DNA from: Candidatus Electronema aureum
Lineage (GTDB): Bacteria; Desulfobacterota; Desulfobulbia; Desulfobulbales; Desulfobulbaceae
DNA: 32,000 nucleotides
Assembly: GCA_004284765.1 (NCBI GenBank)
Contig: NQJD01000015.1
Span: 25,167-57,166 of the forward strand
Direction: 5' to 3'
Below are positions 9,105 through 32,000 of this stretch, one piece after another (position 1 is the first letter of the stretch; each line of letters starts with the position of its first letter). The position numbers and the translations under genes were made by a program. The notes under the pieces are model-generated. The model did not search any database. It saw only the letters and a program-made list of their open reading frames with translations, and was not told the DNA's origin.

Positions 9105-9178
9105 ACGTTACTGTTGCAAGGACGTATGTCTAAGAACAGTGCGTCATTTTAACAATTTAAATTTTCTCTTATTCTGCC

Positions 9179-10606
9179 ATGACCCACTTTGATCAGTCCT
9201 TAGATTTGTTGGCTTTCAACCTCAAATTGGCCAGCCGCAGTACCCGCACGAGAATTTTGGTCAGCTCCGGCAAGCAGGAGGATAAGAAAGCTCTCCTTCC
9301 TCATATCAAAGAGCTGCATGAAGTTGGAGTTGAATTTTTCGCCACGACAGGAACCAGTCAATTTCTTTTAGATAACGGGGTAAGTAACACCACGCTGCAC
9401 AAAATTGCCGACAATATCGCGCCCAATATTCTGCATTACCTATCAGATAGCAAATTTGATCTGGTTATCAACATTCTTACTGGCAACAAGGACTATGATG
9501 AGGACTCTGATTCATCGACAATCAGAGCACTTTGTATCGAGAATGGTATTCCAATATTTACTAATATAAAGTTAGCTGCCATGACCCTTGAGCGTTTGCT
9601 CAAGGATAAAAAACAGAATATCTTTAAATACTCCATCACTGACCCATCTGCGCCTTGGGATATGAAGAAATACTTCCTTCAGATGGTGTTAGAAAAAGGA
9701 GGTTTTGCCTGCTATCATGCCCACTTTGACAAATCATACATCATATCTCCTGACAACCTGAAATTAAGTCAGGCGAACATGCAGAAGAAGTGGGAATTAT
9801 ACAAATATGTGAAGGAAAATTATTCAGAAAGCGATCTGACCGAAAGGATGAGCCGTTGTATAGAGGTGATGAAGGCGCAGGGTGTCACTCATTGCCGCAC
9901 CTTTATTGATGCTGACAATACGGTCAAACTCCTGCCGATGCAGGTTGCTCTCGCGCTCAAGGAAAAATATAAACACGAGATAAAAATTGAAATTGCAGTG
10001 CAGCCATTAGAGGGCGTTCTTGAGGAAAAATCAAGAAATTTCTTTGAAAAAGCCTGTGAAATGGCAGATGTCGTCGGTGGATTACCATCGAAAGATCGGC
10101 CTTTACCAGAAAAGCATTTAGATATCATTTTATCTATTGCCAAAAATCTCGGCAAGCCAGTGGATGTGCATGTGGATCAAGAAAACAATCCTGATGAAAA
10201 CGAAACCGAACTGTTGGCTCTTAAAGCGATTGAACACGGTATGGAAGGACGGGTGCGGGCTGTGCATTCGGTATCGTTAGCCGCCAAAGATCAGAGCGAA
10301 CGCAAGCGGATCATGCGGGTGGCCAAGGATGCAGGACTGAGCTTCATAGTCTGTCCTTCTGCTGCCTTGAGCATGAAGCAACTTCAGAAATACGCTCCCT
10401 TGCACAATTCCATCGCCCCGGTGGAGGAGTTAGTGAGCAGCGGCTTGCCGGTTTATCTGGGCGCGGACAACATCCATGATCTCTTCATGCCTTTAGTTGA
10501 TGGTGACATGTGGACAGAATGCCGTTTTTTGATGGAAGCATGTCGCTATTATGAGCTGGAGACAGTAGCAAATTTAGCGACAGATAAATCGGGTTTCTCT
10601 CGATAG
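9179..10606 (+). CDS. amidohydrolase-superfamily protein (cytosine-deaminase-like) with N-terminal MGS-like domain
   Basis: The N-terminal ~140 aa ('ILVSSGKQEDKKALLPHIKEL..GVEFFATTGTSQFL', 'DLVINILTG') resemble the methylglyoxal-synthase-like fold. The C-terminal part carries metal-ligand-like motifs 'YHAHFDK', 'VHVDQ', 'HSVS' and 'GADNIHD'. Confidence 0.6.
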   Translation: MTHFDQSLDLLAFNLKLASRSTRTRILVSSGKQEDKKALLPHIKELHEVGVEFFATTGTSQFLLDNGVSNTTLHKIADNIAPNILHYLSDSKFDLVINILTGNKDYDEDSDSSTIRALCIENGIPIFTNIKLAAMTLERLLKDKKQNIFKYSITDPSAPWDMKKYFLQMVLEKGGFACYHAHFDKSYIISPDNLKLSQANMQKKWELYKYVKENYSESDLTERMSRCIEVMKAQGVTHCRTFIDADNTVKLLPMQVALALKEKYKHEIKIEIAVQPLEGVLEEKSRNFFEKACEMADVVGGLPSKDRPLPEKHLDIILSIAKNLGKPVDVHVDQENNPDENETELLALKAIEHGMEGRVRAVHSVSLAAKDQSERKRIMRVAKDAGLSFIVCPSAALSMKQLQKYAPLHNSIAPVEELVSSGLPVYLGADNIHDLFMPLVDGDMWTECRFLMEACRYYELETVANLATDKSGFSR

Positions 10607-10650
10607 TGAAGCAGGAGCAAGATTATTAGACTGCCTGTGCAATAAAAAAG

Positions 10651-10687
10651 GGAGTCAGTTCGGAAGAGCTGACTCCTTCTTTATTAT
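10651..10687 (+). terminator. Rho-independent terminator
   Basis: GGAGTCAG (10651-10658) pairs with CTGACTCC (10669-10676). The stem can extend around a GGAA loop. It is followed by 'ttctttattat' and preceded by an A-tract. Confidence 0.8.
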
Positions 10688-10948
10688 GACTTGCGCAACT
10701 ATCCGATTTTTCCTGATTCATATTGAAATTCTACCTACACAGCAAGCAGTGTCGCAAGAACAAAAAAATAGATAAGGATTCATCAAGCCGGGTGGTTAAA
10801 AATGGGGAAAAATGGGGAAGCGACCTGCGAGCCAATCCTGTTTGACTTCTGATTTCAGCCATTATACAGTGAAGATATGCGGGCCTCAATCGCCCTTCTT
10901 TCAGTGTTCCGTCAAGAGTTGTTCGCCTCTTTTACTGCGTAATCTTTT

Positions 10949-13642
10949 ATGGAAAGAACAGTGCATTCTGATCTCAAGCATCTTCGCTGCTGGGTACTGA
11001 CCGCTTTCATATTTTGGTCGATTCTGATCAATGGTTCTCTTTGCCTATTTGTCCGCAACCAGTGGAACAACGTCAAGTTTATCGGCAAAGAAATAGGGCT
11101 GGCTGCCATTCATAAGGACCATATTTACCGGATATGGAATGCCCGACAAGGCGGCGTTTATGTGCAAATCAGTGATAAAACCCCGCCAAATCCTTATTTG
11201 AGCAATCTGTCGAATCGAGATGTCAGCACCACAGACGGAAAAAAGCTCACGATGGTCAACCCGGCTTACATGACCCGCCAGATTCATGAGCTTGAACAGG
11301 AGATGAACGGTGTTTTCACCGGGCATATCACCAGCCTGCGAGTAGTTCGGCCTGAAAATAAGCCTGATGATTGGGAAAATCAGGCATTGCGGCAATTTGA
11401 ACACGGGGCGAAAGAATTTGCTGAACTGACCAATAAGGACGGCAAGCCGTTCATGCGGGTTATGAGTCCAACCATTGTGCAGGAATCTTGCCTGAAATGT
11501 CATGCTGAACAGGGATATAAATTAGGTGATATCCGTGGTGGTATTAGCGTCATCGTCCCGATGGAAGAAACCGTAAACTTGTTTCAAAGGCAGTTCAAAA
11601 CTAGTGCCCTCTATCATCTCTTGATTTATCTGATTGGTGTGACCGGTCAGGTGATTTTTTATTCCCAGAGCAGCAGACTGCGCCGCAAGCGGGCGATGGT
11701 GGAGGAAAAACTCTCAAGTCAAGAACAGCATCTACGCAGTATTGTTGATAACATTTCCAACGGCATTGCGGTTTATGAGGTAGATCAAGAAGGACAGGAC
11801 TTTCAGGTTAAGCGAATCAACCCAGCTGGAATGCGCATCGCTAGGCTGGATGAAGCGACTGACCCAGCAGGCAGAAGACCGACCGAGCTATTTTTCGGCT
11901 TCGCTGAGTCGGGATTACTGGAAGTTTTTCAGCGAGTAGCAAAGAGTGGCAGCCCAGAGCATTGTTCTGTCTCCTCGTGCATTCAAAAAACAACTATCGG
12001 TAACGATAGTAAGGACACATCATTTCCCTGCCTGGAATATTACATCTACAAGTTGCCGACTGGCGAGATCGTCGCGGTGTATGAGGATGTGACCTCGCGG
12101 AAACAGGCCAGGGAATTGCTGATCCGTAAAACTGAGGAATGGGAAAGTACCTTTGACGCGATCCCTGATATCATCACTCTGCAAGATAAAGACATGCGGA
12201 TTATCCGCGCCAACCAAGCCACCTTTGAATTTTTCCGCCTGCCACCAGAAAAGCTGCTCGGTATGACTTGCCACAGCCTGTTCCGAGGTTCGGATCAACC
12301 CTGTGCGGGCTGTCCTGGCCTTCATGCGATCAGCGATCGACAGAAACACTGCGGCGGCATGGAACACAAGGCGATTGGCAAATTTTTCCATGTCTGTGCC
12401 GCGCCAGTGCTCAACCCGGAGGGTGAATTCCTTTATTTTGTCTATATTGCCCACGATGTCACTGACAAAAAAAAGCTAGAGGACGAGCTATTTCAGGCGC
12501 AAAAGATGGAGGCTATCGGCACCTTGGCAGGCGGCATTGCCCACGACTTCAACAACATCCTCGCCGCAATTCTCGGCTACACCGAGCTAGCTCGAATGGA
12601 GCTGCCAGAGGGCAGCAATGCTCGCAACGATCTGGAACAGGTGCTTATCGCGGGGAACCGGGCAACGGAACTGGTCAAGCAGATACTCACCTTCAGCCGC
12701 AAAAGCGAGCACCGCAAAAAACCACTGCGGATTTATTTGCTCGTCAAGGAAGCGGTGAAAATGCTGCGTTCTTCGCTGCCGTCAACCATCGATATTCGTA
12801 CCGAAATCGACGAGCACAGCGGTCTCGTACTGGCTGATCCAACCAGCATCCACCAGATCGTTTTCAATCTCTGCACCAACGCTGCCCAGGCTATTGGCAG
12901 CAAGCAGGGAAAAATGGAAATCATCCTGCGCCAAACAGAGCTGACCGCTTCCCAGAGAGAAGAGCGGCCTTTGCTCCAACTAGGGCTGTTCATCGTTTTG
13001 ACCGTTCGGGACAATGGCTGCGGCATGGACGAAAAAACGATGGCCCGCATCTTTGATCCTTATTTTACTACCAAGGAACAGGGCGCGGGTACTGGCCTAG
13101 GCTTGGCTGTCACGCACGGGGTGGTCGAAGACTGCCAAGGCTTCATCGAGTTGGAAAGCGAGTTGGGTAAAGGAACAACGTTTCATGTTTATCTACCAGT
13201 CCTGCCAGAAGAGAGCAAGAATATGCAGCAGGAGACAGACAGCGTGGCGCAGTTACCTTGCGGCACGGAGCGCATTCTCTTTGTGGATGACGAGCCGTCG
13301 ATTGTCCATATCAGCCGCGCGATTCTGACTACGCTGGGCTATTCGGTTCATGCTGAAACCGAGAGCATGGCTGCCTTGGAAAAATTTCGGCAGAACCCAG
13401 CATTGTACGATTTGCTGGTTACAGACCAAACTATGCCTGGTCTGACCGGCAGCGAACTGGCCAAGGCGGTGCTAGAAATCCGTCCCGACCTGCCGGTGAT
13501 TCTCTGCACTGGCTACACCGCTGCCTTGGCGGAAAAAGAGGCACTAGCCCTAGGGGTGCGCCGCTACGTGATCAAACCGTTGAATTCAACGAAACTGGCC
13601 ACTTTGGTCAGAGAAGTGCTGGATGAGGCGAAGCTGGGCTAA
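10949..13642 (+). CDS. hybrid sensor histidine kinase/response regulator with periplasmic haem-c (DUF3365-like) sensor and PAS domains
   Basis: TM segment, a ~190-aa extracytoplasmic region with CXXCH ('CLKCH') and a second TM segment. These are followed by PAS regions, HisKA ('GGIAHDFNNILAAILGY'), HATPase_c ('DNGCGM', 'GTGLGLA') and a C-terminal REC domain ('ILFVDDE...LLVTDQTMPG'). Confidence 0.9.
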   Translation: MERTVHSDLKHLRCWVLTAFIFWSILINGSLCLFVRNQWNNVKFIGKEIGLAAIHKDHIYRIWNARQGGVYVQISDKTPPNPYLSNLSNRDVSTTDGKKLTMVNPAYMTRQIHELEQEMNGVFTGHITSLRVVRPENKPDDWENQALRQFEHGAKEFAELTNKDGKPFMRVMSPTIVQESCLKCHAEQGYKLGDIRGGISVIVPMEETVNLFQRQFKTSALYHLLIYLIGVTGQVIFYSQSSRLRRKRAMVEEKLSSQEQHLRSIVDNISNGIAVYEVDQEGQDFQVKRINPAGMRIARLDEATDPAGRRPTELFFGFAESGLLEVFQRVAKSGSPEHCSVSSCIQKTTIGNDSKDTSFPCLEYYIYKLPTGEIVAVYEDVTSRKQARELLIRKTEEWESTFDAIPDIITLQDKDMRIIRANQATFEFFRLPPEKLLGMTCHSLFRGSDQPCAGCPGLHAISDRQKHCGGMEHKAIGKFFHVCAAPVLNPEGEFLYFVYIAHDVTDKKKLEDELFQAQKMEAIGTLAGGIAHDFNNILAAILGYTELARMELPEGSNARNDLEQVLIAGNRATELVKQILTFSRKSEHRKKPLRIYLLVKEAVKMLRSSLPSTIDIRTEIDEHSGLVLADPTSIHQIVFNLCTNAAQAIGSKQGKMEIILRQTELTASQREERPLLQLGLFIVLTVRDNGCGMDEKTMARIFDPYFTTKEQGAGTGLGLAVTHGVVEDCQGFIELESELGKGTTFHVYLPVLPEESKNMQQETDSVAQLPCGTERILFVDDEPSIVHISRAILTTLGYSVHAETESMAALEKFRQNPALYDLLVTDQTMPGLTGSELAKAVLEIRPDLPVILCTGYTAALAEKEALALGVRRYVIKPLNSTKLATLVREVLDEAKLG

Positions 13643-15429
13643 TCCGAGGATGGAGCAACAGGCAAGTCGATATGCACGGCGGTGCCACTCCCCAGCAGCG
13701 AATCCGCTTCAATGTAGCCTTCGTGCTGACTGACTATCGAGGCGGCGATAGTTAGCCCCAGTCCCATCCCCTTGGTTTTGCCCCTTGTTTTCCCAGAAAA
13801 ATAGGGATCAAAAATGTTGGGCAAATCGTCCTTGCGAATGCCACGGCCTTGATCGCGGACAGTGATGCGGACATATTCCCCTTCTTTGCGGCCAGCAGCC
13901 TCATGACCGAGCAGGCAGATATTTTCTGCGCTGACCTGCACTCGTCCTCCAGCAGGAGCCATCGCCTCTGTTGCATTACGGAACAACTCGCGCAGTACCT
14001 GCTCAATCTGCCCAGGATCGGCATAAATCGGCAGCAAGTTATCCGACATATCCAGCTCTGGCACAACGTTCCCGCCTTCAAAAAAGGAAAAGCAAGTCGC
14101 CCTAATCAACTCCGCAGGTGCCACAGCTTGCCGCACGGGTGGCGTGAAACTCGAGAACAGCAAAAATTTGTGCGATAGCTCCTTGGCCTCTGTTGCTGAG
14201 GCGGTTGCATCTTGGAGAAAGCCCAGAGCGCGGTGCTCCGGGTGGAGCTTCATCATCGCCAGCTCAAGGTTGCCGGTAATCGCCATCAGCAGGTTGTTGA
14301 AGTCATGAGCGATACCACCAGCCATCATCGATACGGTTTCCATCTTTCGGTTGCGGATTAGCTCCTCTTCCATTTTTTTCCGACGGCTGATATCGATGCA
14401 ATATTCAATCACCCGCGTGACTTGGCCCTGTCGATCTGTCACCGGACAGGTATGAATTTCCATCGTTTGCGGATTACCTGCTGCATCAGTACCGACATGC
14501 TCGACCATGACTGGCCTGCCCTGCTCGCGCACGATGTTGAGCGGGCATTCTAATCCCTGTTCAAAACAAGGCTGGCTGAAACCGTGCATGTATTGATAGC
14601 AGGTTTTCAAGTGATCCCGACCTGCTGCCTGACTACCTGCGGCCCTGTTGGCAGCCAAGATTCGGAACGTGGCGACATCAATGACCGCAAAAGGATGCGG
14701 CAACGAATTGATCACCGTGCTGAGAAAGCGATTCTGCTGGAGGATTTCTGCACTGCGTAGCTCAATCTGCTTCTCTAAGCTGTCACGGTGGAGGCGGATT
14801 TTTTCCTCAGCCCGCCGCCGTTCCTTAATTTCTTTGGTCAGCAGATCGTTGGTGTGGCGGAGTTCAGCGGTTTGCTCACGCACATGCTCTTCCAGCATAT
14901 TCCGCTGCATAACTAAAGCGGACATAGCCTGTTTATGCTCCACCGTTAAATGCCATTTTTCAATCAAGGCTGCTGCTGATTGGCGAATTTCAATCGCCTC
15001 AAAGGGCTTTTTCAGGATCAACAGCTTGTCGGCAGAGAGCAGAGCCGAGCTGATATCCTGCCACGAATAATCAGAATACGCCGTGATCACCACAAACTGA
15101 AGCTGATAATCCTCCTGCTGGAGTCGCTTTATGGTCTTCAAGCCGTCCATACCGGGCTGGAGTCGCATATCGACGTAGGCCAAGGCGTAGGGTTTTCGCT
15201 CTAACCGAGAATGCCGGACCATCTCCACTGCCTCCTCGCCCCGGAAGGCTGAGTCGATCAGCAAATCCGCCTTTTCTTCCGTCGGTGCCTCTTGACCAAC
15301 AATATCAGCGAACAGAGCATCCAATTCGCCTGATTCATTCTGGTGCAGCAGAATTTTTTTGATGTCACTGTGGATGTCTGGATTGTCGTCAACAATCAAA
15401 ATTCGGTCGATCCTGCCGTTTTTTTTCAC
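13639..15429 (-). CDS. response-regulator receiver / PAS / histidine kinase fusion protein
   Basis: The GTG start overlaps the upstream stop (GTGA). It has an N-terminal REC domain ('ILIVDDNPDIH', 'YVDMRLQPGMDG'), a coiled coil, a PAS domain, HisKA ('GGIAHDFNNLLMAITGN') and HATPase_c ('DQGRGI', 'GMGLGL'). Confidence 0.9.
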   Translation of the reverse strand: MKKNGRIDRILIVDDNPDIHSDIKKILLHQNESGELDALFADIVGQEAPTEEKADLLIDSAFRGEEAVEMVRHSRLERKPYALAYVDMRLQPGMDGLKTIKRLQQEDYQLQFVVITAYSDYSWQDISSALLSADKLLILKKPFEAIEIRQSAAALIEKWHLTVEHKQAMSALVMQRNMLEEHVREQTAELRHTNDLLTKEIKERRRAEEKIRLHRDSLEKQIELRSAEILQQNRFLSTVINSLPHPFAVIDVATFRILAANRAAGSQAAGRDHLKTCYQYMHGFSQPCFEQGLECPLNIVREQGRPVMVEHVGTDAAGNPQTMEIHTCPVTDRQGQVTRVIEYCIDISRRKKMEEELIRNRKMETVSMMAGGIAHDFNNLLMAITGNLELAMMKLHPEHRALGFLQDATASATEAKELSHKFLLFSSFTPPVRQAVAPAELIRATCFSFFEGGNVVPELDMSDNLLPIYADPGQIEQVLRELFRNATEAMAPAGGRVQVSAENICLLGHEAAGRKEGEYVRITVRDQGRGIRKDDLPNIFDPYFSGKTRGKTKGMGLGLTIAASIVSQHEGYIEADSLLGSGTAVHIDLPVAPSSD

Positions 15430-17294
15430 GCTCCCCTCCTCCTACCCGCTGTGGTCGGCAGCTCCAGCCTGAAAACCGCCCCTTTGTCTTCGCCCGGACT
15501 TCCCGCCGTCAGCGTACCGCCCATTTCCGTTGCCAGATTAGCCGCGTTGTGCAGACCAAAGCCATGTCCGCCTTTTTTGGCCGTAAAGCCAAAAGCAAAA
15601 ATATGCTCCATGATCTCGCTGCTGATGCCTCTGCCGTTGTCTGCTACTTCTACCATAACGTGTTCATTCTCTGTGTCAACAGGCTGGAGCCGGAGGCTGA
15701 TTTTTCGCTCTGTTTGCTTGAGTCCCTCAAACGCATCAGCGGCATTACTAATCAGATTAACCATAATCTGTAAGATTTTGCGCCGTTCGCCCTGCATGGC
15801 CGGAAGTCGGGCATAATTGCGTTCCACCTGAATCTGCCGCTCAGTGATCTTTTGCTCAAAAATCTCCATGCTTTCCTCAATCACTGAAGCCAGATCAAAT
15901 TGCTCGATCAGCACCTTGCCGCCCGCAGCATCCTGCTGGGTACGGATGATGTCAGCGGCTCGGCGGACATGCCGGAGCTGATGCCCAATTTCCTCTAAGA
16001 GCCGCCAACGCTCTTTAGTCAACTGGGCAGAAAGGCTGGCAAAGTAGAGCGGCAGTTTGCGGCCCTTGGGATCGCTGCCAAAGAAAGCCGCTGGATCCTC
16101 CTTGTGCTGCTCTATCAACTCGACAATCGCAGGCAGGGTGGAGCTGCCGCTTTTCTGTACCATTTCCCCCAACCGTTCTGCCGAAACCGAAATGCTATTC
16201 AGCGTGTTGCCGACATTGTGCAATACCTCAGTCGCCACTTCAGCCTTGCCTGCTAGCCGCGAGGTATCCAAGAGCGTTTTTAAGATATGTGCATGTTCAA
16301 CCGCCAAGGCGCAAACCCCGGACACGTGCAGGGCGGTGTTCATGTACGAGCCGATATGCTGAGGAAAAGCGACCTGCTGCACGAGCACCACAGCCAAGGT
16401 CTTTCCACCTGTACCGATCCGCAAAAGAAAGCCATCACCGCTGGCCAAGAGTTGGTGTTGTCGTTCGCTCTCAAGAAGGAATTGCGTAGCAGCCTGCTGT
16501 TCCTCCGCGTTTAAGTCAGCTAATCGATCCGTGGCAAGGCCGTTTTTCGTCACTGGGAGGCAGCGAATCTGCCGAGGCGCAAAGAGCATGGTAAATAGCT
16601 CGGCAATTCCAGCGAAAGCCTCTGGCTCCGAACTCGCCTTGACCACTAACCCCAGCATGTCGAAGATCATGGCGGTCTGTGCGGCCTGTTGACGAGCCTG
16701 CTCTTTCTGTCGCTCTAGTTCCTCCTGTCGATATTCTGCTGCTATTTTGGTTAATAGTAAGCCGTGATATTCCAAGCCTATAGGCAGAATTTCGGCTGGG
16801 AGCTGGAAAAGGTCGGCCAGCTCGGCGAGATGCAGACTCGCTTGCTCATCCCTGCCCGTGTCTAACAGAACCAGCTTGTTGACATCGTGCTCAAACAGCT
16901 CTGCCGCTTGGGTTCGATCAGCTAACTGCTCTTGCCAACGAGCCAACCAGCCTGGCAAAAGCAGTCCAGCTCCGCTCTGACGAAGATGTCTGACCAAGGT
17001 TGGGCTACAGAGCAGATGTACGCACTGCTCGGCACGCCGGATTCGACTGCCAGGAATCTTCAAATCCTTGGCAAGACAGCGGCAACCAATGATCTCAACG
17101 GCATCTGCCCCACTCTCTTTCACCAAAGCGATCAACTCTTCTCTGTCAGCCAGTCGGGAAGCACAATGAGCGGCAAAAGCTCTCACTTCAAGCCCAGTTA
17201 TCCCCTGAAGCTGCGCGGCCGCTTGGGTATCAGGCAGGAGCTGCTTGCAAACCAAAAAGCAGAGAGAAAGCGGTCTCACGAAGAGCGGCCCCAT
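15426..17294 (-). CDS. cytoplasmic sensor histidine kinase with Cys-rich N-terminal DUF1638-like domain
   Basis: H-box-like 'EVLHNVGNTLNS' and HATPase_c ('NLISNAADA', 'DNGRGI', 'GHGFGLH'). ATG 17294 is preferred over the TTG at 17345 and overlaps the upstream gene by 19 nt. The N-terminal ~190 aa carry 'EIIGCRCL' and 'AEQCVHLLCSP...LLLPGWLARW'. Confidence 0.8.
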   Translation of the reverse strand: MGPLFVRPLSLCFLVCKQLLPDTQAAAQLQGITGLEVRAFAAHCASRLADREELIALVKESGADAVEIIGCRCLAKDLKIPGSRIRRAEQCVHLLCSPTLVRHLRQSGAGLLLPGWLARWQEQLADRTQAAELFEHDVNKLVLLDTGRDEQASLHLAELADLFQLPAEILPIGLEYHGLLLTKIAAEYRQEELERQKEQARQQAAQTAMIFDMLGLVVKASSEPEAFAGIAELFTMLFAPRQIRCLPVTKNGLATDRLADLNAEEQQAATQFLLESERQHQLLASGDGFLLRIGTGGKTLAVVLVQQVAFPQHIGSYMNTALHVSGVCALAVEHAHILKTLLDTSRLAGKAEVATEVLHNVGNTLNSISVSAERLGEMVQKSGSSTLPAIVELIEQHKEDPAAFFGSDPKGRKLPLYFASLSAQLTKERWRLLEEIGHQLRHVRRAADIIRTQQDAAGGKVLIEQFDLASVIEESMEIFEQKITERQIQVERNYARLPAMQGERRKILQIMVNLISNAADAFEGLKQTERKISLRLQPVDTENEHVMVEVADNGRGISSEIMEHIFAFGFTAKKGGHGFGLHNAANLATEMGGTLTAGSPGEDKGAVFRLELPTTAGRRRGA

Positions 17295-18310
17295 TGCTGC
17301 ACTGCCGCAGAGATCGCCAGCAGAATCTCGTCGCTGACCTGCCAAGGAATTTCACCGTGGTTATCGGTAAGAATGAAGCCACCGCCCGCTGCGGCTGCGG
17401 CCAGAGCCTCCTTTACTTTTGCCTCGGCTTGCGTCGGTGTCCAACGACGCATTTCAATTCCATTCAGATTGCCCGCCACCGTGATTTTTCCTTTGCACGC
17501 TGCTTTAACTGCGGCCAGATCATCTAATGCGCTTACACCGGCGGCGACCGCACCGACTTTGGCTAGTTCCTCCACCATTGCCAGACAGCGGCCTGAACCC
17601 AGATGAATGCAGGCCGGACCGTTGAAGTAGGAGAGACACTGCCGGGCCATCTCCAGTCCGGTGCGGCGGTACATTTCAGGTGGAATCATGTCGGGCGAGG
17701 CCAGCGGATCAAAATAGCAGACCGTTGTGGCTCCGGCCTGAAACTGAGCATTCGCCCAAGCCACGCAAAAGGCTTGGTTCACCGCCATCAGTCGGGCGAA
17801 CAACTCCGGTTGTTCGTACAGCAGCTCAATATAGGCGGCAAAGCCCATCTGCATGACTGGCAGAGAAAAGGGCGAAATAACCACACCGATAATCGGCACG
17901 GTGTTGCCAGCCCGCTCTTTGAGGCCACTGATCACATCCAGCATTCGGCAGAGACAGGGCGTTTCGTCCACCACTGGAACTTGCAAGGCAAGGATATCCT
18001 CTGGCTTTTTGAGCACTGGTGCGCCGCTGTTGGGCGGGCCGTCCTCATACCATACGATTTCGCCGCCAAAGGCTTCGGCTTCTGCTGCGCCGTACAGCAG
18101 AGGATAGAAGCAGTCGTGGTGGTATTTGGCCCGCAGGCGGCATTGACCTTCAATAACATATTTTGCCTGAGAAAAATACTCGCGGATACTTAGACCTAGT
18201 TCTTTAGCCCCGTGCATAGTCAGCAGGAGAAAAAACGGGACGCGGTCTGGCTCTCGGTGACTGAGCGTGGTCAGCACCCGTTCCATCGAGGTCATTTCTG
18301 CGTTGCTCAT
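17276..18310 (-). CDS. uroporphyrinogen decarboxylase (URO-D) family protein, MtaA/CmuA-like methyltransferase
   Basis: The ATG at 18310 follows 'ggagga' and overlaps the upstream stop (ATGA). 'MERVLTTLSHREPDRVPFF' and the overall TIM-barrel-sized 344-aa protein match the URO-D/MT2 family, which is usually paired with corrinoid proteins. Confidence 0.75.
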   Translation of the reverse strand: MSNAEMTSMERVLTTLSHREPDRVPFFLLLTMHGAKELGLSIREYFSQAKYVIEGQCRLRAKYHHDCFYPLLYGAAEAEAFGGEIVWYEDGPPNSGAPVLKKPEDILALQVPVVDETPCLCRMLDVISGLKERAGNTVPIIGVVISPFSLPVMQMGFAAYIELLYEQPELFARLMAVNQAFCVAWANAQFQAGATTVCYFDPLASPDMIPPEMYRRTGLEMARQCLSYFNGPACIHLGSGRCLAMVEELAKVGAVAAGVSALDDLAAVKAACKGKITVAGNLNGIEMRRWTPTQAEAKVKEALAAAAAGGGFILTDNHGEIPWQVSDEILLAISAAVQQWGRSS

Positions 18311-23903: not shown

Positions 23904-24104
23904 CATGCGGCACGGAGCAGCTTGCACAGGGCAGGCCAGTTCATGTTCAACAAGGACGAATCAGCGGGCTTGCAAGAGCGATATGATGGATGGCACATTC
24001 ATAGACGTGGTGATCAACAAGCTGCAATGGCTGCTTGATCATCCTGAAGTGACATGGAGCGGCAGCGGCAAGCAGAACATATTCATCTTTGCACGGAGGA
24101 CAGA

Positions 24105-25646
24105 TTGAAAACACCACTGAAGGGACTACTGTTCTTGGCTGCGCTGCTGATGGCTGTCGGCACAGCGCAGGCGGCAACCATCACCGTAGATATAGGCGGT
24201 GCCTGCACGTTAGCTGATGCCATCACTGCAGCCAATACCGACACAGCCACCGGCGGCTGCGTGGCAGGCGCAGGAGATGACACCATAACCTTGGAGACAG
24301 ATATCACTCTTGCCGCCGCCCTGCCGACAATCACGAGCACGGTCATCATTGAGGGCGGCTACTACTTCATCAGCGGCAATAATAATTCCAGCGTAGGCAC
24401 TGTGCTGAGAGTAGCCAACAGCGGCAACCTAATCCTGAATCAAGTCATTGTTACTCGCGGCTATAACAGCACATCAGGTCTTGGCGGAGGAATTTACACT
24501 AGCGGCGGCACAGTTACGCTGAACAACTCCACAGTCAGCGAAAACTCTATCTCCTCCTCTTCTTCCTCTGCTGGCCTTTCCTACAGTGAGGGCGGGGGGA
24601 TTTACAGCTATAGCGGCACAGTCACACTGAACAACTCCACAGTCAGTGGGAACTCTGTCTCCTCTTCTCCCCCCTCCTCCGACTTTATCTGCCACAGTGA
24701 GGGCGGGGGGATTTACAGCTATAGCGGCACAGTCACGCTGAACAACTCCACAGTCAGTGGGAACTCTGTCTCCTCTTCTGTCTCCTCCTCTTCCTCCTTT
24801 CTCTACTACAGTAAGGGCGGGGGAATTTACAGTAGCGGTACAGTCACGCTGAACAACTCCACAGTCAGCGGGAACTCTGTCTCCTCTCCCGTCTCCTCTT
24901 CCTCCTTCTTTATCTACTACAGTGGCGGCGGGGGAATTTACAGTGACGGTACAATCACGCTGAACGACTCTACAGTCAGTGGAAACTCTGCTTCCTCTTC
25001 TGTTTCATCTTCCTCTTTCATTGAATACTACGGTGGTGGCGGAGGGATTTACAGTGGCGGCACAATGATGATGAATCACTCTACAGTTAGCGTGAACTAT
25101 ATTTCCATGTCCTTCTCCTCATTATCCGGTGTTGTGTCATTTAGCGGTGGGGGAATTTACAGTGGCGGCGGCGCAGCCATATTGCGCAGTTCCCTTGTCA
25201 GCGGCAACACAGCCATGCTCCACGGCCCAGATTTCGCAGCTTCCAATAGCAATGAAGTCCAGGGCACAGTGACAGCAGATGGCCATAATCTCTTCGGCCA
25301 CAGCGGTGAGACGAGCGCACAGGCATTCTCATCCTACAACTTCACGCCCGGCAGCAGCGACATTACCGCCACCAGCGACGGCACCAAGCCTACTGCGCTG
25401 GCCGCTATCCTCTCCCCTCTGGCCGACAACGGCGGTGCTACCAAGACCCACGCACTGCCTGCGGGCAGCCCGGCGATTGATCTGGACACGACATGCAGCA
25501 CTGGCCTGACCATAGATCAGCGCGGCTATCCGCGTCCGGTTGGTTCAGGCTGCGATGCGGGTTCTTTTGAATACGGGAGCGTTCGTACGGTCACCGGCAT
25601 AAACATGGCACCCATCTACAAGCTGCTGCTGTTCAAGCGGCGATAG
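24105..25646 (+). CDS. secreted parallel beta-helix repeat protein with C-terminal choice-of-anchor-Q-like domain
   Basis: The TTG at 24105 follows 'ggagga' and gives a textbook signal peptide, 'KTPLKGLLFLAALLMAVGTAQA|A' (the track ORF starts at ATG 24054). It has about 7 repeats of 'GGGIYS..GTVTLNNSTVSGNS'. The C-terminus reads 'LSPLADNGGATKTHALPAGSPAID...DQRGYPRP...CDAGSFEY'. Confidence 0.75.
   Translation: MKTPLKGLLFLAALLMAVGTAQAATITVDIGGACTLADAITAANTDTATGGCVAGAGDDTITLETDITLAAALPTITSTVIIEGGYYFISGNNNSSVGTVLRVANSGNLILNQVIVTRGYNSTSGLGGGIYTSGGTVTLNNSTVSENSISSSSSSAGLSYSEGGGIYSYSGTVTLNNSTVSGNSVSSSPPSSDFICHSEGGGIYSYSGTVTLNNSTVSGNSVSSSVSSSSSFLYYSKGGGIYSSGTVTLNNSTVSGNSVSSPVSSSSFFIYYSGGGGIYSDGTITLNDSTVSGNSASSSVSSSSFIEYYGGGGGIYSGGTMMMNHSTVSVNYISMSFSSLSGVVSFSGGGIYSGGGAAILRSSLVSGNTAMLHGPDFAASNSNEVQGTVTADGHNLFGHSGETSAQAFSSYNFTPGSSDITATSDGTKPTALAAILSPLADNGGATKTHALPAGSPAIDLDTTCSTGLTIDQRGYPRPVGSGCDAGSFEYGSVRTVTGINMAPIYKLLLFKRR
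24477..25212 (+). repeat. in-frame tandem coding repeats (~111-117 nt period, ~7 units)
   Basis: Units recur with 'ggcggggg(g/a)atttacag...acagtcac.ctgaacaactccacagtcag.gg.aactct'. Segments 24585-24668 and 24696-24779 differ at 1 of 84 positions. Confidence 0.9.
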
Positions 25647-25656
25647 AAAAAAACGC

Positions 25657-25788
25657 ATGACTGACATCATAGCCCCTGATCATCCTCAAAGCCGCCTGCA
25701 TCGACTCTTTGACCGCAACTTTCTCGACTACACCGCCTACGTTATCCGCGAGCGGGCCATCCCGGACATCGACGACGGCCTGAAACCA
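25657..25788 (+). pseudogene. duplicated 5' fragment (44 codons) of the ParC-like topoisomerase gene
   Basis: Codons 11-44 ('QSRLHRLFDRNFLDYTAYVIRERAIPDIDDGLKP') are identical in protein to codons 15-48 of the intact gene at 26014. Homology stops abruptly before the conserved 'VQRR', and the frame then reads unrelated sequence to a stop at 25878. Confidence 0.8.
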
Positions 25789-25849
25789 ATTTTCCGCAGC
25801 AACGTCCACAGCCAAGAAAACAATCTGCGCTATAACACGGAGGAACAGC

Positions 25850-26013
25850 ATGGAAAAGATTCTGTATCTTCATATTGAGAAACTGCCGGAAGGGGTTTAT
25901 CTGGCAACTTCAGAGTCTGTGCAGGGGCTTATCGCTCAGGGACGGACAGTCGCTGAAACCTTGGAAATCGCCCGTGGTGTGGCGCGGAAGCTCTCTGAAG
26001 CTGCAACAAACGT

Positions 26014-26017
<4 letters not shown>
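25850..26017 (+). CDS. HicB-like / UPF0150-fold small protein (55 aa), orphan
   Basis: Not in the ORF track because it is under 60 aa. SD 'ggagga' lies 5 nt upstream. Translation: MEKILYLHIEKLPEGVYLATSESVQGLIAQGRTVAETLEIARGVARKLSEAATNV. The 'EG.Y.A.....GL..QG.T..E.L' pattern matches the HicB N-terminal / DUF1902-type fold. Its stop overlaps the downstream ATG (ATGA, 26014-26017). Confidence 0.5.
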
Positions 26018-28029
<2,012 letters not shown>

Positions 28030-28047
28030 AAGTTAAGGAGAGCAACC

Positions 28048-29292
28048 ATGAAGCATTCAGGAACAATTTTCACTGTCAGAACTAAGGCATTTCGATCATT
28101 TCGTGATGAAACGGCATTTGAGATTCGCCCCCTGACCTTGCTGTACGGTTTCAATCAGGCTGGCAAAAGCACGTTATTACGATTGCTTCCACTACTTGCT
28201 GAATCCATTCAGCCTCATGCAGGGCCGCTTGCTTTAAGCTGTCCTGCCGTAGGAGGAGCAAGTTTGAAGGAAATGGGATGGCTTGGAAAAAATCCAAATA
28301 TGTCACCAAAGATCACCATTGAGGCTTCCTGTCTTCCTTCAAGCCCGAATTTGACTATCCAGTTTACGAATGATAATGGACTGCTCGTCAACCGTCTGAA
28401 AATCGTATCGCATGAAAAAGAGGTTTTTTCTGTTGATTATCAAAAAATGGCATCCCGCAATGGAAAAGAAACCAGAGCAATCTATACTGGAACCTGTAAC
28501 GGCATCGCATGGACTGGAGAATTAAGATTCAACACCATGCTTCCTTCTGGCCTGCCAGAAAATGCTGAAAAGATAGTCAAGGAAATTCATTGTGCAATCA
28601 AATCTCTTGAACGACTTCAATGGCTGCAAGCGAATCGTATTACAGCTCAACCTCATAATGATAGAAATAGTCTTTGCTGCCATTCTGATGGAACCGACTT
28701 GCCCGATCTCCTGAATAACCAAGAAGGGCAGGAACAGCTAAAAAAAATATCTGGATGGCTGCAAGGTCAAGATGGACTGGGCAACGAAATCAGCATCCGG
28801 CCAAATTTTGCCGGTCATTTGGAATTTATTCACGGAGCGCAAGGACGAGAGCAGCTTCCCCTTTTTCTTGCAGGCGAGGGAATCAGGTCTCTTTTGCCAA
28901 TTATAGCCTGCGCCTGCTGGGCTGAAAACAAAAATGAATCTGCTCCCTCAATGCTTGCTGTGGAAGAGATTGAAGCGCATCTTCATCCCACTGTGCAGGT
29001 GGCTCTTTTTGATAGGCTGATTGAAACCGTGCGCACAGGAATTCCAATTGCGCTGGAGACACATTCAGTTTATCTTCTTCGAGCGATGCAACTTGCTGTT
29101 CTTGAAGGAAGGCTTTTGCCTGAAGACATCAGTCTGTACTGGATAGAACAAGCAAAAGACAGCGCAGCTACGGCAAGCAGAATCGAAATCAGACCGGATG
29201 CCACTCTTGTTGGATGGCGGCCAGATATTTTTGAAAAAGAGCAGGAGCTTGCTCATAGAATACTTGATCTTCGCTGGACAGGGAGAAAATGA
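28048..29292 (+). CDS. ABC-type AAA ATPase (AAA_15/AAA_21-like, DUF3696-like C-terminus)
   Basis: SD 'aaggag'. Walker A 'GFNQAGKST', signature-like 'LAGEGIRSLLPII', Walker B/D-loop 'MLAVEEIEAHLHP' and H-loop 'ALETHS'. The C-terminal 'IEIRPDATLVGWRPDIFEKE' resembles the DUF3696 'WP.GFF' tail. Confidence 0.75.
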   Translation: MKHSGTIFTVRTKAFRSFRDETAFEIRPLTLLYGFNQAGKSTLLRLLPLLAESIQPHAGPLALSCPAVGGASLKEMGWLGKNPNMSPKITIEASCLPSSPNLTIQFTNDNGLLVNRLKIVSHEKEVFSVDYQKMASRNGKETRAIYTGTCNGIAWTGELRFNTMLPSGLPENAEKIVKEIHCAIKSLERLQWLQANRITAQPHNDRNSLCCHSDGTDLPDLLNNQEGQEQLKKISGWLQGQDGLGNEISIRPNFAGHLEFIHGAQGREQLPLFLAGEGIRSLLPIIACACWAENKNESAPSMLAVEEIEAHLHPTVQVALFDRLIETVRTGIPIALETHSVYLLRAMQLAVLEGRLLPEDISLYWIEQAKDSAATASRIEIRPDATLVGWRPDIFEKEQELAHRILDLRWTGRK

Positions 29293-30237
29293 ATGATTAT
29301 CTGGCTGCATGACCGTCTATTTGCGAACGATAGGCAAGGAGATTTAGCTCTACTGACACTGCTTCGCAATGCTGCGGCGCGTGGCCACACTCTGATTATC
29401 TCCAATAGTCCAAACTCTCCATTCCACAGGCGCAGCTCTTCATATTTTGAACAATGGATCAGCACCTTTCCTGTTAGACTTGAAGAAGAACTCAAGTTGA
29501 TTCGGCAGCAACTGATGATAGTGTCAGCCAACTCGACAGTGCGCGGAACGGGACGGCTGCTTGTTTCTGCCAGAAAAATCCCTGATGGAATCACAGGCTG
29601 CCAGATTTCTTTAGAGGAAGCGGTGCGGGCGGCAGCGCAGCCTCTTTATGTGCTTGTGGAAAATCAGATCAATGATGCCGCATTTCTCCGTCGTGTGATG
29701 CCGCCGGTTTGGAGCAAGAAGCTGCTGCAATGGGAAAGTGAGGGAAAGTTGCGCTATGAACATAGCGGAGGTATTGATACCATGAGAAATATTGTTATGT
29801 TTTATACACAAGACGACAAGGCAAGGCTGGCTTTTGGTCTGCCTGCGCAGATATGGCAACTCGGTCATTTTATCATTTATGATCATGACGGGAAGAATGC
29901 TGAAAATCCCAGTCAGTCTTCAATGGATTTAAAAAAGATTTGTGTGCAGAACCGCAGCCACCGCCTACTTCGGCGATGTCAGGAAAATTATCTGCCAAAA
30001 GAGGTAATGCTAGCTATAATCGAGAAACGCATCACCGATCCTAATGACCGGATACAACGCAGAATTAAAATTGACCAGCATTGTTCTGGTGGAGATCAAC
30101 GCCATTTCACCAAACTTGACAAGCTGTTCAAAAACGGATTCACCGAGGAAATAGCGTGGGTTGAAGACTGGTTCAAAAATGACGGCTCTTGGCCTGAGAT
30201 GACCGAGTTGGCTGAAAAAATCGCAGCAGCGATGTAA
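29293..30237 (+). CDS. Toprim-like (DUF4435/OLD-type) protein with uncharacterised N-terminal domain
   Basis: It starts immediately after the ATPase stop (TGAATG). Ordered motifs are 'LYVLVENQINDAAFL' (Toprim Glu), 'GGIDTMRN', 'IIYDHDG' (DxD) and 'RRCQENYLPKE' (the ENYL motif seen in DUF4435/OLD C-termini). Confidence 0.5.
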   Translation: MIIWLHDRLFANDRQGDLALLTLLRNAAARGHTLIISNSPNSPFHRRSSSYFEQWISTFPVRLEEELKLIRQQLMIVSANSTVRGTGRLLVSARKIPDGITGCQISLEEAVRAAAQPLYVLVENQINDAAFLRRVMPPVWSKKLLQWESEGKLRYEHSGGIDTMRNIVMFYTQDDKARLAFGLPAQIWQLGHFIIYDHDGKNAENPSQSSMDLKKICVQNRSHRLLRRCQENYLPKEVMLAIIEKRITDPNDRIQRRIKIDQHCSGGDQRHFTKLDKLFKNGFTEEIAWVEDWFKNDGSWPEMTELAEKIAAAM

Positions 30238-30253
30238 TTGAAAGAGGTGTATC

Positions 30254-31867
30254 ATGCCATTTTATGAACGACAGCCGTATATACAGCCTTTACATCAAGT
30301 TGTTAAAGAGGTGATGGAAGGAGAGATACGGGTACCAAGATTTCAGCGACCAGGTACGGAAGAAACATGGAACCCTGAAAGACGAGGAGACCTTCTTGAC
30401 AGTATTTACCGAGGATTTCCTATCGGCACCATACTGCTATGGTCTGCAAATCAGAAGATTCGCACAATGGATGCAGTCGGTGGATTCAAAATACCATCAC
30501 TAAAACAGGAAGATAGTCAGCAAAGATTGCTCCTCGACGGACATCAGCGCCTCTCAACCTTGGTGCAGCTTCTTGGTAGAGCCTTGAAGGAGGAAACGAA
30601 TAATCAGACACCAAAGGAACAGATTGACGAGAAAGAGTGTTGGTTTTTTGAATTGCGGCCAGAAAAAACGGCATCAAGCAGAGACCGATTTATTCTCTTG
30701 AAAAGAGGGAAGGAACCTGACAATACCCACCTGCCGATCAATATAATTTTGAACAGATCAGAATTGAACAAGTGGATTCGCGATCATTCTGGATATTTAA
30801 ATGACAAGATGATTGAAGAAGCAGATACATTGCGTGACAAGATTCGGGAATACAGCATACCGGTTGCAGTACTGGTGACTGATTCTTTGCAGGAGGCAAC
30901 CGAGAGTTTTAAACGGATAAACTCAAGCGGAGTCAGGATGAATGATTTCAATATGTTTTCTGCGCTTTCCTATAACGACGAATTCGATGCTCAAAAAATA
31001 TTTGAAGATTATCGAAGTTTAATGCTTGAACCTATACATTGGCAGAATGTATCTGATTTAGAAATTCTTCGGATTTGTGCTGGTCTTGTTGAAAATCATC
31101 CAGCAACTTTTTTGGTGGAAAAACTATCAAAAGACTTGAAGGATAAAAAAGAAATTATTGAGTTGGCATTTAAGGCGATAGAACGTGCAGCTATTATTCT
31201 AAAAAGGAGCTGCGGCATACATGGCCGAAGGTCTCTTCCTTATGCTTGGCAACTGATTACCATAGCAATTTATCTCGCACATAACGCAGATGAAAATAAA
31301 ATTGATGAAGAAGCGATAGCAAAATGGTTCTGGCTTACAACTTATGGTGAAGTTTTTAATAGCTTCAAAGATAAGACCTATGACAGGAGCCGTGAGGCAC
31401 TTGTGTCGATGATAGCCGGGCGTTCATGGGGGGCGATGGAACGGGATGTCACGAGGAAAGTTGAAATGATCAGTCGTTTCGATTTCCGGGCGGCTCGTTC
31501 CAAAGCCTGCGCCTTGTGTATGGCGCGGCATCAGGATGAAGACGATTTTGAGGGTGATGCTCACAAAGCTTTAGCAGAAGGCGTTGACTCTATGGGAGTC
31601 ATCTGCTCAAAAGGACAACGATCTGTATGGTGGCATTTAGCGATTGCTACCTCTTCTGATTCTTTGATACAATATCGTAATGCCCTTGCCTTAGCTGCAA
31701 AAAATACTGATCAAGAAGAGCATAGTGTCATTTTGAAAAAATTAGGTTTTCCTGATAGCAGCAAAGGAACAGTTAAGGAGCTTCTTGAGGAACGGATGAG
31801 GATGTTAATAGAGAAAGAAAGTGAATTTATTAAAGAGCTGGAGTTAGATGCTTCTGCACTTTCTTAA
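30254..31867 (+). CDS. DUF262 (ParB/GmrSD N-terminal-like) domain protein without recognisable DUF1524/HNH domain
   Basis: 'IRVPRFQRP', 'FPIGTILLW' and 'LLDGHQRLSTL' correspond to the DUF262 signature (QR...W, DGQQR). I could not see a His-Me finger motif in the C-terminal ~300 aa. Confidence 0.75.
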   Translation: MPFYERQPYIQPLHQVVKEVMEGEIRVPRFQRPGTEETWNPERRGDLLDSIYRGFPIGTILLWSANQKIRTMDAVGGFKIPSLKQEDSQQRLLLDGHQRLSTLVQLLGRALKEETNNQTPKEQIDEKECWFFELRPEKTASSRDRFILLKRGKEPDNTHLPINIILNRSELNKWIRDHSGYLNDKMIEEADTLRDKIREYSIPVAVLVTDSLQEATESFKRINSSGVRMNDFNMFSALSYNDEFDAQKIFEDYRSLMLEPIHWQNVSDLEILRICAGLVENHPATFLVEKLSKDLKDKKEIIELAFKAIERAAIILKRSCGIHGRRSLPYAWQLITIAIYLAHNADENKIDEEAIAKWFWLTTYGEVFNSFKDKTYDRSREALVSMIAGRSWGAMERDVTRKVEMISRFDFRAARSKACALCMARHQDEDDFEGDAHKALAEGVDSMGVICSKGQRSVWWHLAIATSSDSLIQYRNALALAAKNTDQEEHSVILKKLGFPDSSKGTVKELLEERMRMLIEKESEFIKELELDASALS

Positions 31868-31876
31868 ACAAAATTT

Positions 31877-32000
31877 GGTAATAGAGATCTGTGAGTGATC
31901 AATGAAATAAAATACAATCGTTGTAGTGATTAATAAATCTCCAAACAGATGCAGTTAAGTTTTCAATGCTTCTCGAAAACGACAATGTCTTCCTGACTAA
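31877..32000 (-). mobile_element. end of an IS1-family insertion sequence (partial, continues beyond the window)
   Basis: On the minus strand the element ends '...TCTCTATTACC' at 31877, sharing the terminal ATTACC (GGTAAT on the plus strand) with E. coli IS1 inverted repeats. The stop codon of the transposase fragment lies inside the IR region, as in IS1. Confidence 0.5.
31899..32000 (-). CDS. IS1-family transposase, C-terminal 33 codons (partial)
   Basis: Reverse translation gives LVRKTLSFSRSIENLTASVWRFINHYNDCILFH*. Compare the E. coli InsB C-terminus '...[28 protein letters not shown]'. Confidence 0.5.
   Translation of the reverse strand, partial: LVRKTLSFSRSIENLTASVWRFINHYNDCILFH

Follow-up and report, generated by a model that had tools for sequence, protein, structure and literature searches.

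The window analysed here is a stretch of 32,000 nucleotides (nt) from the cable bacterium Candidatus Electronema aureum (contig NQJD01000015.1), and close to its end it carries a cassette of three genes on the same strand that encode an ABC ATPase (P1), a two-domain protein with a Toprim-like C-terminal domain (P2), and a DUF262 protein (P3). Based on the identities of the domains, the catalytic motifs, which are intact in each of the three proteins, the strictly conserved operon, and the mobile, patchy distribution of the genes, we propose that the trio is probably the operon of a Menshen-type tripartite anti-phage (anti-mobile-element) system of the PADLOC family PDC-M55; that it is an anti-phage system is very probable. 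The coordinates of the features discussed in the text are compiled in Table 1.

Table 1. Features of the three-gene cassette and its boundaries, in positions of the window (aa, amino acids; AF2, AlphaFold2).
Feature	Position	Strand	Basis or remark
P1 ribosome-binding site, AAGGAG	28035-28040	+	Sequence read; within the 18-nt gap, 7 nt upstream of the P1 ATG
P1, 414-aa ABC ATPase, NsnB-like, PDC-M55A match	28048-29292	+	Pfam AAA_15 3.5e-18, AAA_21 1.9e-12
P2, 314 aa, whole open reading frame	29293-30237	+	
P2 N-terminal alpha/beta domain, residues 1 to about 97	29293-29583	+	AF2 model
P2 C-terminal Toprim-like domain, residues 98-314	29584-30237	+	AF2 model, conservation, Foldseek
P3, 537-aa DUF262/ParB-like nucleoside triphosphatase (NTPase), PDC-M55C match	30254-31867	+	Pfam GmrSD_N 1.6e-24
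IS1-family insertion sequence, left end	31877-32000, continuing past the window end	-	Cassette boundary, outside the system; GGTAAT... begins 9 nt after the P3 stop

The three proteins are all matched by the PDC-M55 models of the PADLOC database: P1 by PDC-M55A (5.2e-30, near full length), P2 by PDC-M55B (6.8e-12, residues 104-282), and P3 by PDC-M55C (3.4e-71, full length). We know of no difference between this family and the cassette of the window, and, as judged by these models, the cassette is a member of PDC-M55. The family is one of the 145 phage defence candidates that Payne, Hughes, Fineran & Jackson (2024) identified through "guilt by embedding" and released untested, and our literature search found no paper that mentions it. 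Because it has no published description, mechanism, or experimental test, the label PDC-M55 is a name and not an explanation. An earlier note on this DNA, made from the letters alone, had presented the trio as a candidate undescribed system that its author did not recognise; this claim has to be given up, since PADLOC-DB v2 assigns all three proteins to PDC-M55A, B, and C, and the three-part logic has been published for Menshen.

A scan of a genome collection with the P2 family returned 11 loci, which belong to Electrothrix, Competibacteraceae, Lamprocystis, Accumulibacter, Massilia, Polyangium, and another Myxococcota genome and span Desulfobulbia, Gamma- and Betaproteobacteria, and Myxococcota; four additional loci encode distant relatives of P2 with 26-27% identity. 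According to tblastn, the order ATPase-P2-DUF262 is present with tight spacing in all 11 scan loci, two of whose trios are cut by contig ends, and the same order recurs in the four distant loci, where the partners of the P2 relative carry AAA_15/21 and GmrSD_N domains. The three-gene unit that the earlier note had proposed from a single locus is syntenic in 15 of 15 related loci. In the window, the stop codon of P1 abuts the start codon of P2 (TGAATG, a gap of 0 nt; the sequence reads ...aaaaTGAATGatt), and the 16 nt between P2 and P3 contain a GAGGTG-like ribosome-binding site. At the other loci, the reading frames of P1 and P2 share 4 nt or 1 nt, and the gap between P2 and P3 ranges from 7 to 17 nt. 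P1 and P2 are translationally coupled. The coordinates of the open reading frames, their strand, both gaps, and the 18-nt distance to the topoisomerase gene upstream had been given exactly in the earlier note, and each of the three proteins has tens to hundreds of homologues, which places the reading frames far beyond chance. No Rfam family and no tRNA was detected within or near the cassette.

P1 is, by its motifs and profile matches, an ABC-type ATPase of the AAA_15/AAA_21 (OLD-ABC) kind, as had been claimed on the basis of the motifs GFNQAGKST, EEIEAHLHP, and ETHS, all of which are present. The Walker A motif spans G34-S41 (28147-28170), followed by the signature G276-E277-G278, the Walker B residues E306-E307, and H339 of the H-loop. 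In 10 homologues G34, G39-K40-S41, G276-E-G278, E306-E307, and H339 are invariant, as is R197, an arginine that occupies the Q-loop position in place of glutamine. The top PADLOC-DB model for P1 is NsnB of Menshen (5.8e-36), which is covered from position 5 to 338 of its 345 positions and whose alignment reaches residue 401 of P1; PDC-M55A comes second, and weaker matches include AriA, GajA (with many models), HEC-01A, AbiLi, and PtuA. Pfam DUF3696 does not match P1 at E<=1, although the NsnB model still aligns to residue 401 and the C-terminal tail, about residues 384-410, is conserved. A search by sequence found no PDB relative of P1 at E<=0.01.

P3 is a DUF262 protein in which the motifs FQRP and DGHQRL were recognised correctly in the earlier note. 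Motif I (R29-F-Q-R32...W39), motif II (D95-G-H-Q-R99, 30536-30550), and motif III (F219-K-R-I-N223) are intact, and R32...W39, D95-G-H-Q-R99, and F219...N223 are invariant across 11 homologues; the spacing within motif I is longer than in the published NsnA motif QRxxxW. Besides PDC-M55C, the protein matches the PADLOC model HEC-05 (BrxU-like; 4.9e-17) with residues 14-384, in an alignment that ends at position 427 of the 600 in the model. Up to about residue 384, P3 can be aligned to the linker found in GmrSD-like proteins, so that this part of the protein may be a GmrSD-M-like region. The nearest solved structure is BrxU (7p9k), in its DUF262 part only. GmrSD_N is the only domain family found in P3; the absence of a detectable DUF1524/HNH domain agrees with the first reading of the sequence, and the C-terminal ~150 aa match no known family.

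P2 is the protein whose assignment depends most on structure prediction. Its AlphaFold2 model, based on an alignment of 66 sequences, has two domains and a predicted local distance difference test score (pLDDT) of 95.2, and a model of the C-terminal domain alone reaches a pLDDT of 97. The N-terminal domain contains strands 2-6, 33-37, and 88-91 and the conserved residues D7, H32, W55, and E66. In the C-terminal domain, E123 (29659-29661) comes right after strand 118-122 and D128 lies within the next helix, while G159-G160 comes right after strand 153-157, D197-H-D199 (29881-29889) right after strand 192-196, and E231 after strand 222-224. The Toprim fold is defined by a conserved Glu after beta-1 and a DxD after beta-3, and the positions of E123 and D197-x-D199 correspond to this layout. 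E123, G159, G160, D197, and D199 are invariant across 99 sequences of the P2 family, down to about 22% identity, and the motifs VENQIND, YDHDG, and QENYL, in which a Toprim-like protein had been seen before, are present with key residues that are invariant or nearly so in the homologues. When the C-terminal domain alone was compared with the PDB by Foldseek, the first rank was taken by AriB of the PARIS system (8ux9_A, E 0.053, prob 0.93, TMq 0.38) and the fourth by the Thermus (Ts) OLD nuclease (6p74, prob 0.82, TMq 0.39), with a second AriB entry at rank 9. The 306-residue chain of 8ux9 was assigned to AriB by its size, AriB being the smaller subunit (35 kDa) and AriA the larger (55 kDa). 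With the full-length model, no PDB match fell below E 0.1, and the OLD nuclease, AriB, and T7 primase were within the top 20; the comparison of this model with BFVD returned nothing useful. From the predicted fold and the conserved acidic residues, we consider it quite likely that the C-terminal domain of P2 is an OLD/AriB-like Toprim nuclease domain.

By sequence, P2 belongs to a large family outside the general domain collections. No Pfam, NCBIfam, or PHROG family was found for it, nor for its 66 close or 99 distant relatives (thresholds of E<=10 or E<=0.01). Each of the 99 distant relatives is matched by the PDC-M55B model (best E 2.7e-44), and the family comprises 1047 cluster representatives at E<=1e-3. 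An hhalign comparison of the family with a profile of six OLD Toprim sequences brought the GG and DxD motifs into register, at a prob of 0.2%. When the Toprim region of P2 Old was used alone as a query, only fragments were returned, and plasmids gave no match.

The closest described relative of the trio as a whole is Menshen (NsnA-NsnB-NsnC), which has been experimentally validated against phages (Millman et al. 2022; Li et al. 2025, PMC12065111). In PMC12065111, NsnA, NsnB, and NsnC are proposed to be sensor, transducer, and effector, respectively. According to this work, NsnA combines a ParB-DUF262 domain, with the motifs QRxxxW, DGxQR, and FxxxN, and a helical ParBDB domain that follows it; NsnB deviates from other ABC ATPases in having a GxG instead of an SGG signature and an Arg at the Q-loop, and binds NsnC through its C-terminal DUF3696 helix; and NsnC joins an N-terminal inactive-PIN domain to a C-terminal effector, for which the Toprim-fold variants DUF4276 and RloB have been described (PMC12065111). 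The cassette has a counterpart for each of these roles: P3 is DUF262/ParB-like, P1 is an ABC ATPase of the AAA_15 type, and P2 is a putative effector with two domains. P1 has NsnB as its top model over the full length and shows the same GxG and Arg deviations, and motifs I-III of the DUF262 domain are intact in P3. By analogy of position, the N-terminal domain of P2 is a candidate adaptor, placed like the inactive-PIN domain of NsnC; no PIN structure was among the PDB matches that Foldseek returned for the P2 model.

From these likenesses we infer how the trio would act in defence and in which order. P3, a ParB-like DUF262 NTPase with an intact DGHQR motif and a putative helical DNA-binding region, would serve as an NTP-dependent sensor of foreign, possibly modified, DNA. 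P1, the NsnB-like ABC ATPase, would be the ATP-driven switch or transducer that binds the effector, and it probably keeps P2 inactive within a complex, in the way that AriA restrains AriB and that has been predicted for NsnB and NsnC. P2 would be the effector, with its N-terminal alpha/beta domain docking on the ATPase; once released or activated, its Toprim domain would cut nucleic acid by means of a two-metal acidic site formed by E123, D128, D197, D199, and E231. The substrate may be DNA, or tRNA as for AriB.

Several observations weigh against this reading. The Toprim assignment of P2 is not statistically secure, as no Foldseek match had an E below 0.05 with either the full-length or the domain model. 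The comparison of the P2 family by hhalign with a class-1 OLD Toprim profile, built from 115 relatives of P2 Old, gave a prob of 0.2% and no meaningful alignment, a result that we take as negative for class-1 OLD in particular, and a profile search of the family against the sequences of the PDB found nothing relevant. The Toprim claim of the earlier note is moderately supported, by the layout of E123, D197xD199, and E231 and by the AriB and OLD nucleases as best domain matches; by sequence, P2 is neither DUF4435 nor Toprim_OLD. The PADLOC models of NsnC and AriB do not match P2, and the DUF4276 and RloB models of the Menshen effectors do not match it either. The gene order is B-C-A in all 15 loci, whereas Menshen is defined by A-B-C, and P3, with 537 aa against about 385 aa in NsnA, has an extra C-terminal ~150 aa and matches the NsnA model weakly (1e-7), with the DUF262 core alone (53-200/385). 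For these reasons, namely the different order, the missing NsnC, DUF4276, or RloB match of P2, and the weak NsnA match of P3, and because an inactive-PIN and a ParBDB domain are unverified in the cassette, we keep it apart from Menshen in the strict sense. PDC-M55 as a family, moreover, is a candidate of which no member has yet been put to an experimental test.

The surroundings of the genes speak partly for and partly against the reading. At some loci the trio has defence neighbours, which count in its favour: L009 has a type IIG restriction-modification gene immediately upstream, L002 a PDC-S20 KAP NTPase, L029 a methyltransferase with a nuclease, and the source genome a PD-DExK protein beyond the IS1 element. 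The window itself, however, is no defence island, with histidine kinases and housekeeping genes upstream of the cassette, and many related loci are flanked by housekeeping genes.

PARIS is the second system with which the trio has to be compared, since a split ABC ATPase and Toprim protein are common to both. In PARIS, the ABC ATPase AriA has been shown experimentally to sequester the Toprim nuclease AriB until triggered, and the acidic residues of AriB are E26, D30, D88, E90, and E122. AriB is the top structural match of the C-terminal domain of P2, in which E123, D128, D197, D199, and E231 occur in the same order as these five residues. PARIS, in contrast, consists of two genes without a DUF262 partner, while the cassette always includes a third, DUF262 gene; P2 has an additional N-terminal domain, and the AriA matches of P1 are weaker than its NsnB match. 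DUF4435 (PF14491), searched as the Pfam family and as the PADLOC AriB model, did not match P2 or its 66 and 99 relatives. Because this sequence match is missing and the third gene is present, the cassette is not PARIS. The earlier note had suggested that the DUF262 protein replaces or supplements the sensing module of such a pair; a more apt description is a system of the Menshen type in which the order of the genes is permuted.

The likeness to PARIS also raises the possibility that the cassette holds two adjacent systems: a self-sufficient PARIS/AbiL-like pair of P1 and P2 that senses a phage protein as its trigger, and P3 as a separate DUF262 accessory or type IV-like module, with no signalling between the two. 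The matches of P1 to the AriA, GajA, AbiLi, and HEC-01A models agree with such an arrangement, as does AriB as the best structural match of the P2 domain, and ABC ATPase-Toprim pairs act alone in PARIS. However, a P3-type gene follows at the short spacing of 7-17 nt in 15 of 15 loci, even where P2 identity is down to 26%; PADLOC models the trio as one system; the NsnB protein that P1 matches best works with a DUF262 partner; and P3 has no nuclease domain and would thus be unable to restrict on its own. We therefore regard two independent systems as improbable and keep to a single tripartite system of the Menshen type.

Two other groups of defence proteins share parts of the cassette. OLD and Gabija have an ATPase of the same clade, as the many GajA model matches of P1 indicate, and Ts OLD is among the leading matches of the P2 domain. 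In OLD and GajA, however, ATPase and Toprim are fused, whereas here they are separate open reading frames, and the cassette has no gene for a UvrD-like GajB or other helicase; because of this split and the lack of a helicase, it is neither OLD nor Gabija. With GmrSD, BrxU, and SspE, the cassette shares the DUF262 domain and the DGxQR motif of P3, the HEC-05/BrxU-like alignment to residue 384, and BrxU as the nearest structure. It is not GmrSD/BrxU because P3 has no DUF1524; P3 lacks the DUF1524/HNH nuclease of these proteins, and the nuclease function is predicted to be supplied in trans by P2.

A more far-reaching view, which we put forward only tentatively, is that PDC-M55 could be a defence family of its own, connecting the lineages of Menshen and OLD/PARIS, in which a DUF262 DNA sensor would gate an NsnB-like ATPase that in turn would release a Toprim nuclease of an unclassified OLD/AriB-like kind, which may be a tRNase. 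In that case the B-C-A order, the enlarged DUF262 protein, and the Toprim family without a Pfam model (about 1000 representatives) would be marks of a lineage that is old and independent, rather than of a Menshen whose genes were shuffled.

The trio is a conserved, horizontally moving operon with a patchy distribution. The genes that flank it vary from locus to locus and include a radical SAM enzyme, an RND efflux system, and components of ABC transporters, and the topoisomerase gene adjoins the trio only in the window and at none of the 15 other loci; since the flanking genes differ in this way, the cassette moves as a self-contained unit. Its composition points in the same direction, as the AT-richness noted at first sight is borne out by a GC content of 0.442 (0.37-0.47 at third codon positions, GC3), against 0.565 (GC3 0.71) in the topoisomerase gene and 0.528 in the rest of the window, and the GC content of the cassette is lower than that of the flanks in eight of nine cases. 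By this composition, the cassette looks horizontally acquired, and the IS1 element that adjoins it downstream is a further sign of mobility.

Such mobility would also be expected of a selfish addiction or abortive, toxin-antitoxin-like module that stabilises the mobile DNA on which it resides, with the Toprim protein as the toxin, the ATPase as its restraint, and no dedicated phage sensor. Besides the mobile, low-GC, and IS-adjacent distribution, this explanation can draw on some copies that lie on IMG/VR viral contigs, on the VapC toxin-antitoxin pair nearby in the source genome, and on the toxicity of AriB once it is released. Most loci, however, are flanked by housekeeping genes of the chromosome and show no obvious mobile element, a set of three large enzymes whose NTPase sites are intact is more elaborate than addiction modules typically are, and the homologous Menshen protects against phages, all of which makes an addiction module quite unlikely compared with an anti-phage system of the Menshen type.

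Upstream, the cassette is preceded by the gene for subunit A of topoisomerase IV (NCBIfam NF007209, 1.1e-274), whose stop lies at 28029, and the 18 nt between this gene and P1 hold the ribosome-binding site of P1. A promoter-site scan found no promoter-like sites for the cassette above chance. As the gap is too short for a promoter of its own, the cassette may be transcribed together with the topoisomerase gene or from a promoter within the 3' end of that gene. We considered the topoisomerase gene as a member of the system and rejected it, since no such neighbour is present at any other locus. A housekeeping role of the trio in DNA transactions, such as repair, partition, or anti-plasmid compaction by a ParB, an SMC-like ATPase, and a Toprim protein, perhaps linked to topoisomerase IV-A, would be compatible with the start of the cassette 18 nt after that gene and the lack of a promoter of its own, and ParB-like, ABC/SMC-like, and Toprim modules are also found in chromosome maintenance (ParB-SMC). 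We consider such a role very unlikely, as the topoisomerase gene is not a neighbour elsewhere, the taxonomic distribution is patchy, the composition deviates from that of the host genome, and P1 falls within the OLD-ABC/NsnB defence clade rather than among SMC proteins, with no PDB relative at the threshold given above.

Just upstream of the cassette, a direct repeat of 105 nt with 92% identity (25683-25787 and 26052-26156, within 25657-26156 of the window) duplicates the 5' end of the topoisomerase IV-A gene, and the open reading frame at 25657-25878 is a 73-aa copy of the N-terminus of its product. Together, the repeat and this reading frame suggest a past rearrangement at this site.

On the other side, the cassette is bounded by the IS1-type repeat that the earlier note had placed correctly 9 nt after the P3 stop. 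The sequence beyond the end of the window was read in the Candidatus Electronema aureum chromosome OW818638.1 (locus L022), where the IS1 element extends from 12585 to 13333, with a weak pair of terminal inverted repeats spanning ~760 nt, and contains a single open reading frame for a 235-aa transposase (DDE_Tnp_IS1/Zn_ribbon_InsA; 12607-13314, minus strand), which is the next gene after P3. Farther on in the same locus, just past the window end, four minus-strand genes of no assigned function encode proteins of 185, 152, 536, and 210 aa (13692-17999); the 210-aa protein matches the PADLOC PD_DExK model (6.7e-51), and the group is followed by a pair of a VapC PIN protein and a small antitoxin. 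Possibly, this region is another small cluster of defence or toxin-antitoxin genes.

Some related loci carry neighbours that are of interest in their own right. The type IIG restriction-methyltransferase directly upstream of the homologous trio in L009 (99-5584) is encoded by two overlapping open reading frames (711 and 1122 aa), and its gene may be frameshifted. Two of the distant trios are on IMG/VR contigs classed as viral (L028 and L029), and in L029 the DNA methyltransferase and the nuclease are located just downstream of the trio.

Elsewhere in the window, four large PAS/HATPase sensor histidine kinases and hybrid kinases are densely packed between 10949 and 22606, with a URO-D-like gene between them. 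A second low-GC patch (0.435-0.456) at ~9000-11500 takes in an MGS-like/amidohydrolase gene (9179-10606) and extends over the beginning of a hybrid histidine kinase gene. The open reading frame at 24054-25646 encodes 530 aa with an N-terminal hydrophobic segment and many Ser-rich repeats (GGGIYS..GTVTLNNSTVSGNS); it has no Pfam family on record and, from these features, looks like a secreted beta-helix or adhesin-type repeat protein.

Two elements of this picture were already known, the catalogue label PDC-M55 and the sensor-ATPase-effector logic, including Toprim-fold effectors, that has been published for Menshen. What is new is the variant itself, with its permuted operon, a predicted OLD/AriB-like Toprim effector family that has no Pfam model, and an enlarged DUF262 partner. 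P2 defines a sizeable family without a Pfam, NCBIfam, or PHROG model, and its putative active site can be predicted with confidence (E123, D128, D197, D199, E231), which provides clean targets for mutation. If validated, an untested PADLOC candidate would become a working system, in which DUF262 sensing of the Menshen type is wired to a Toprim effector of the OLD/AriB type, and two large lineages of ABC-ATPase defence would thereby be linked. For the cable bacteria, the cassette extends a defence repertoire of which little is known.

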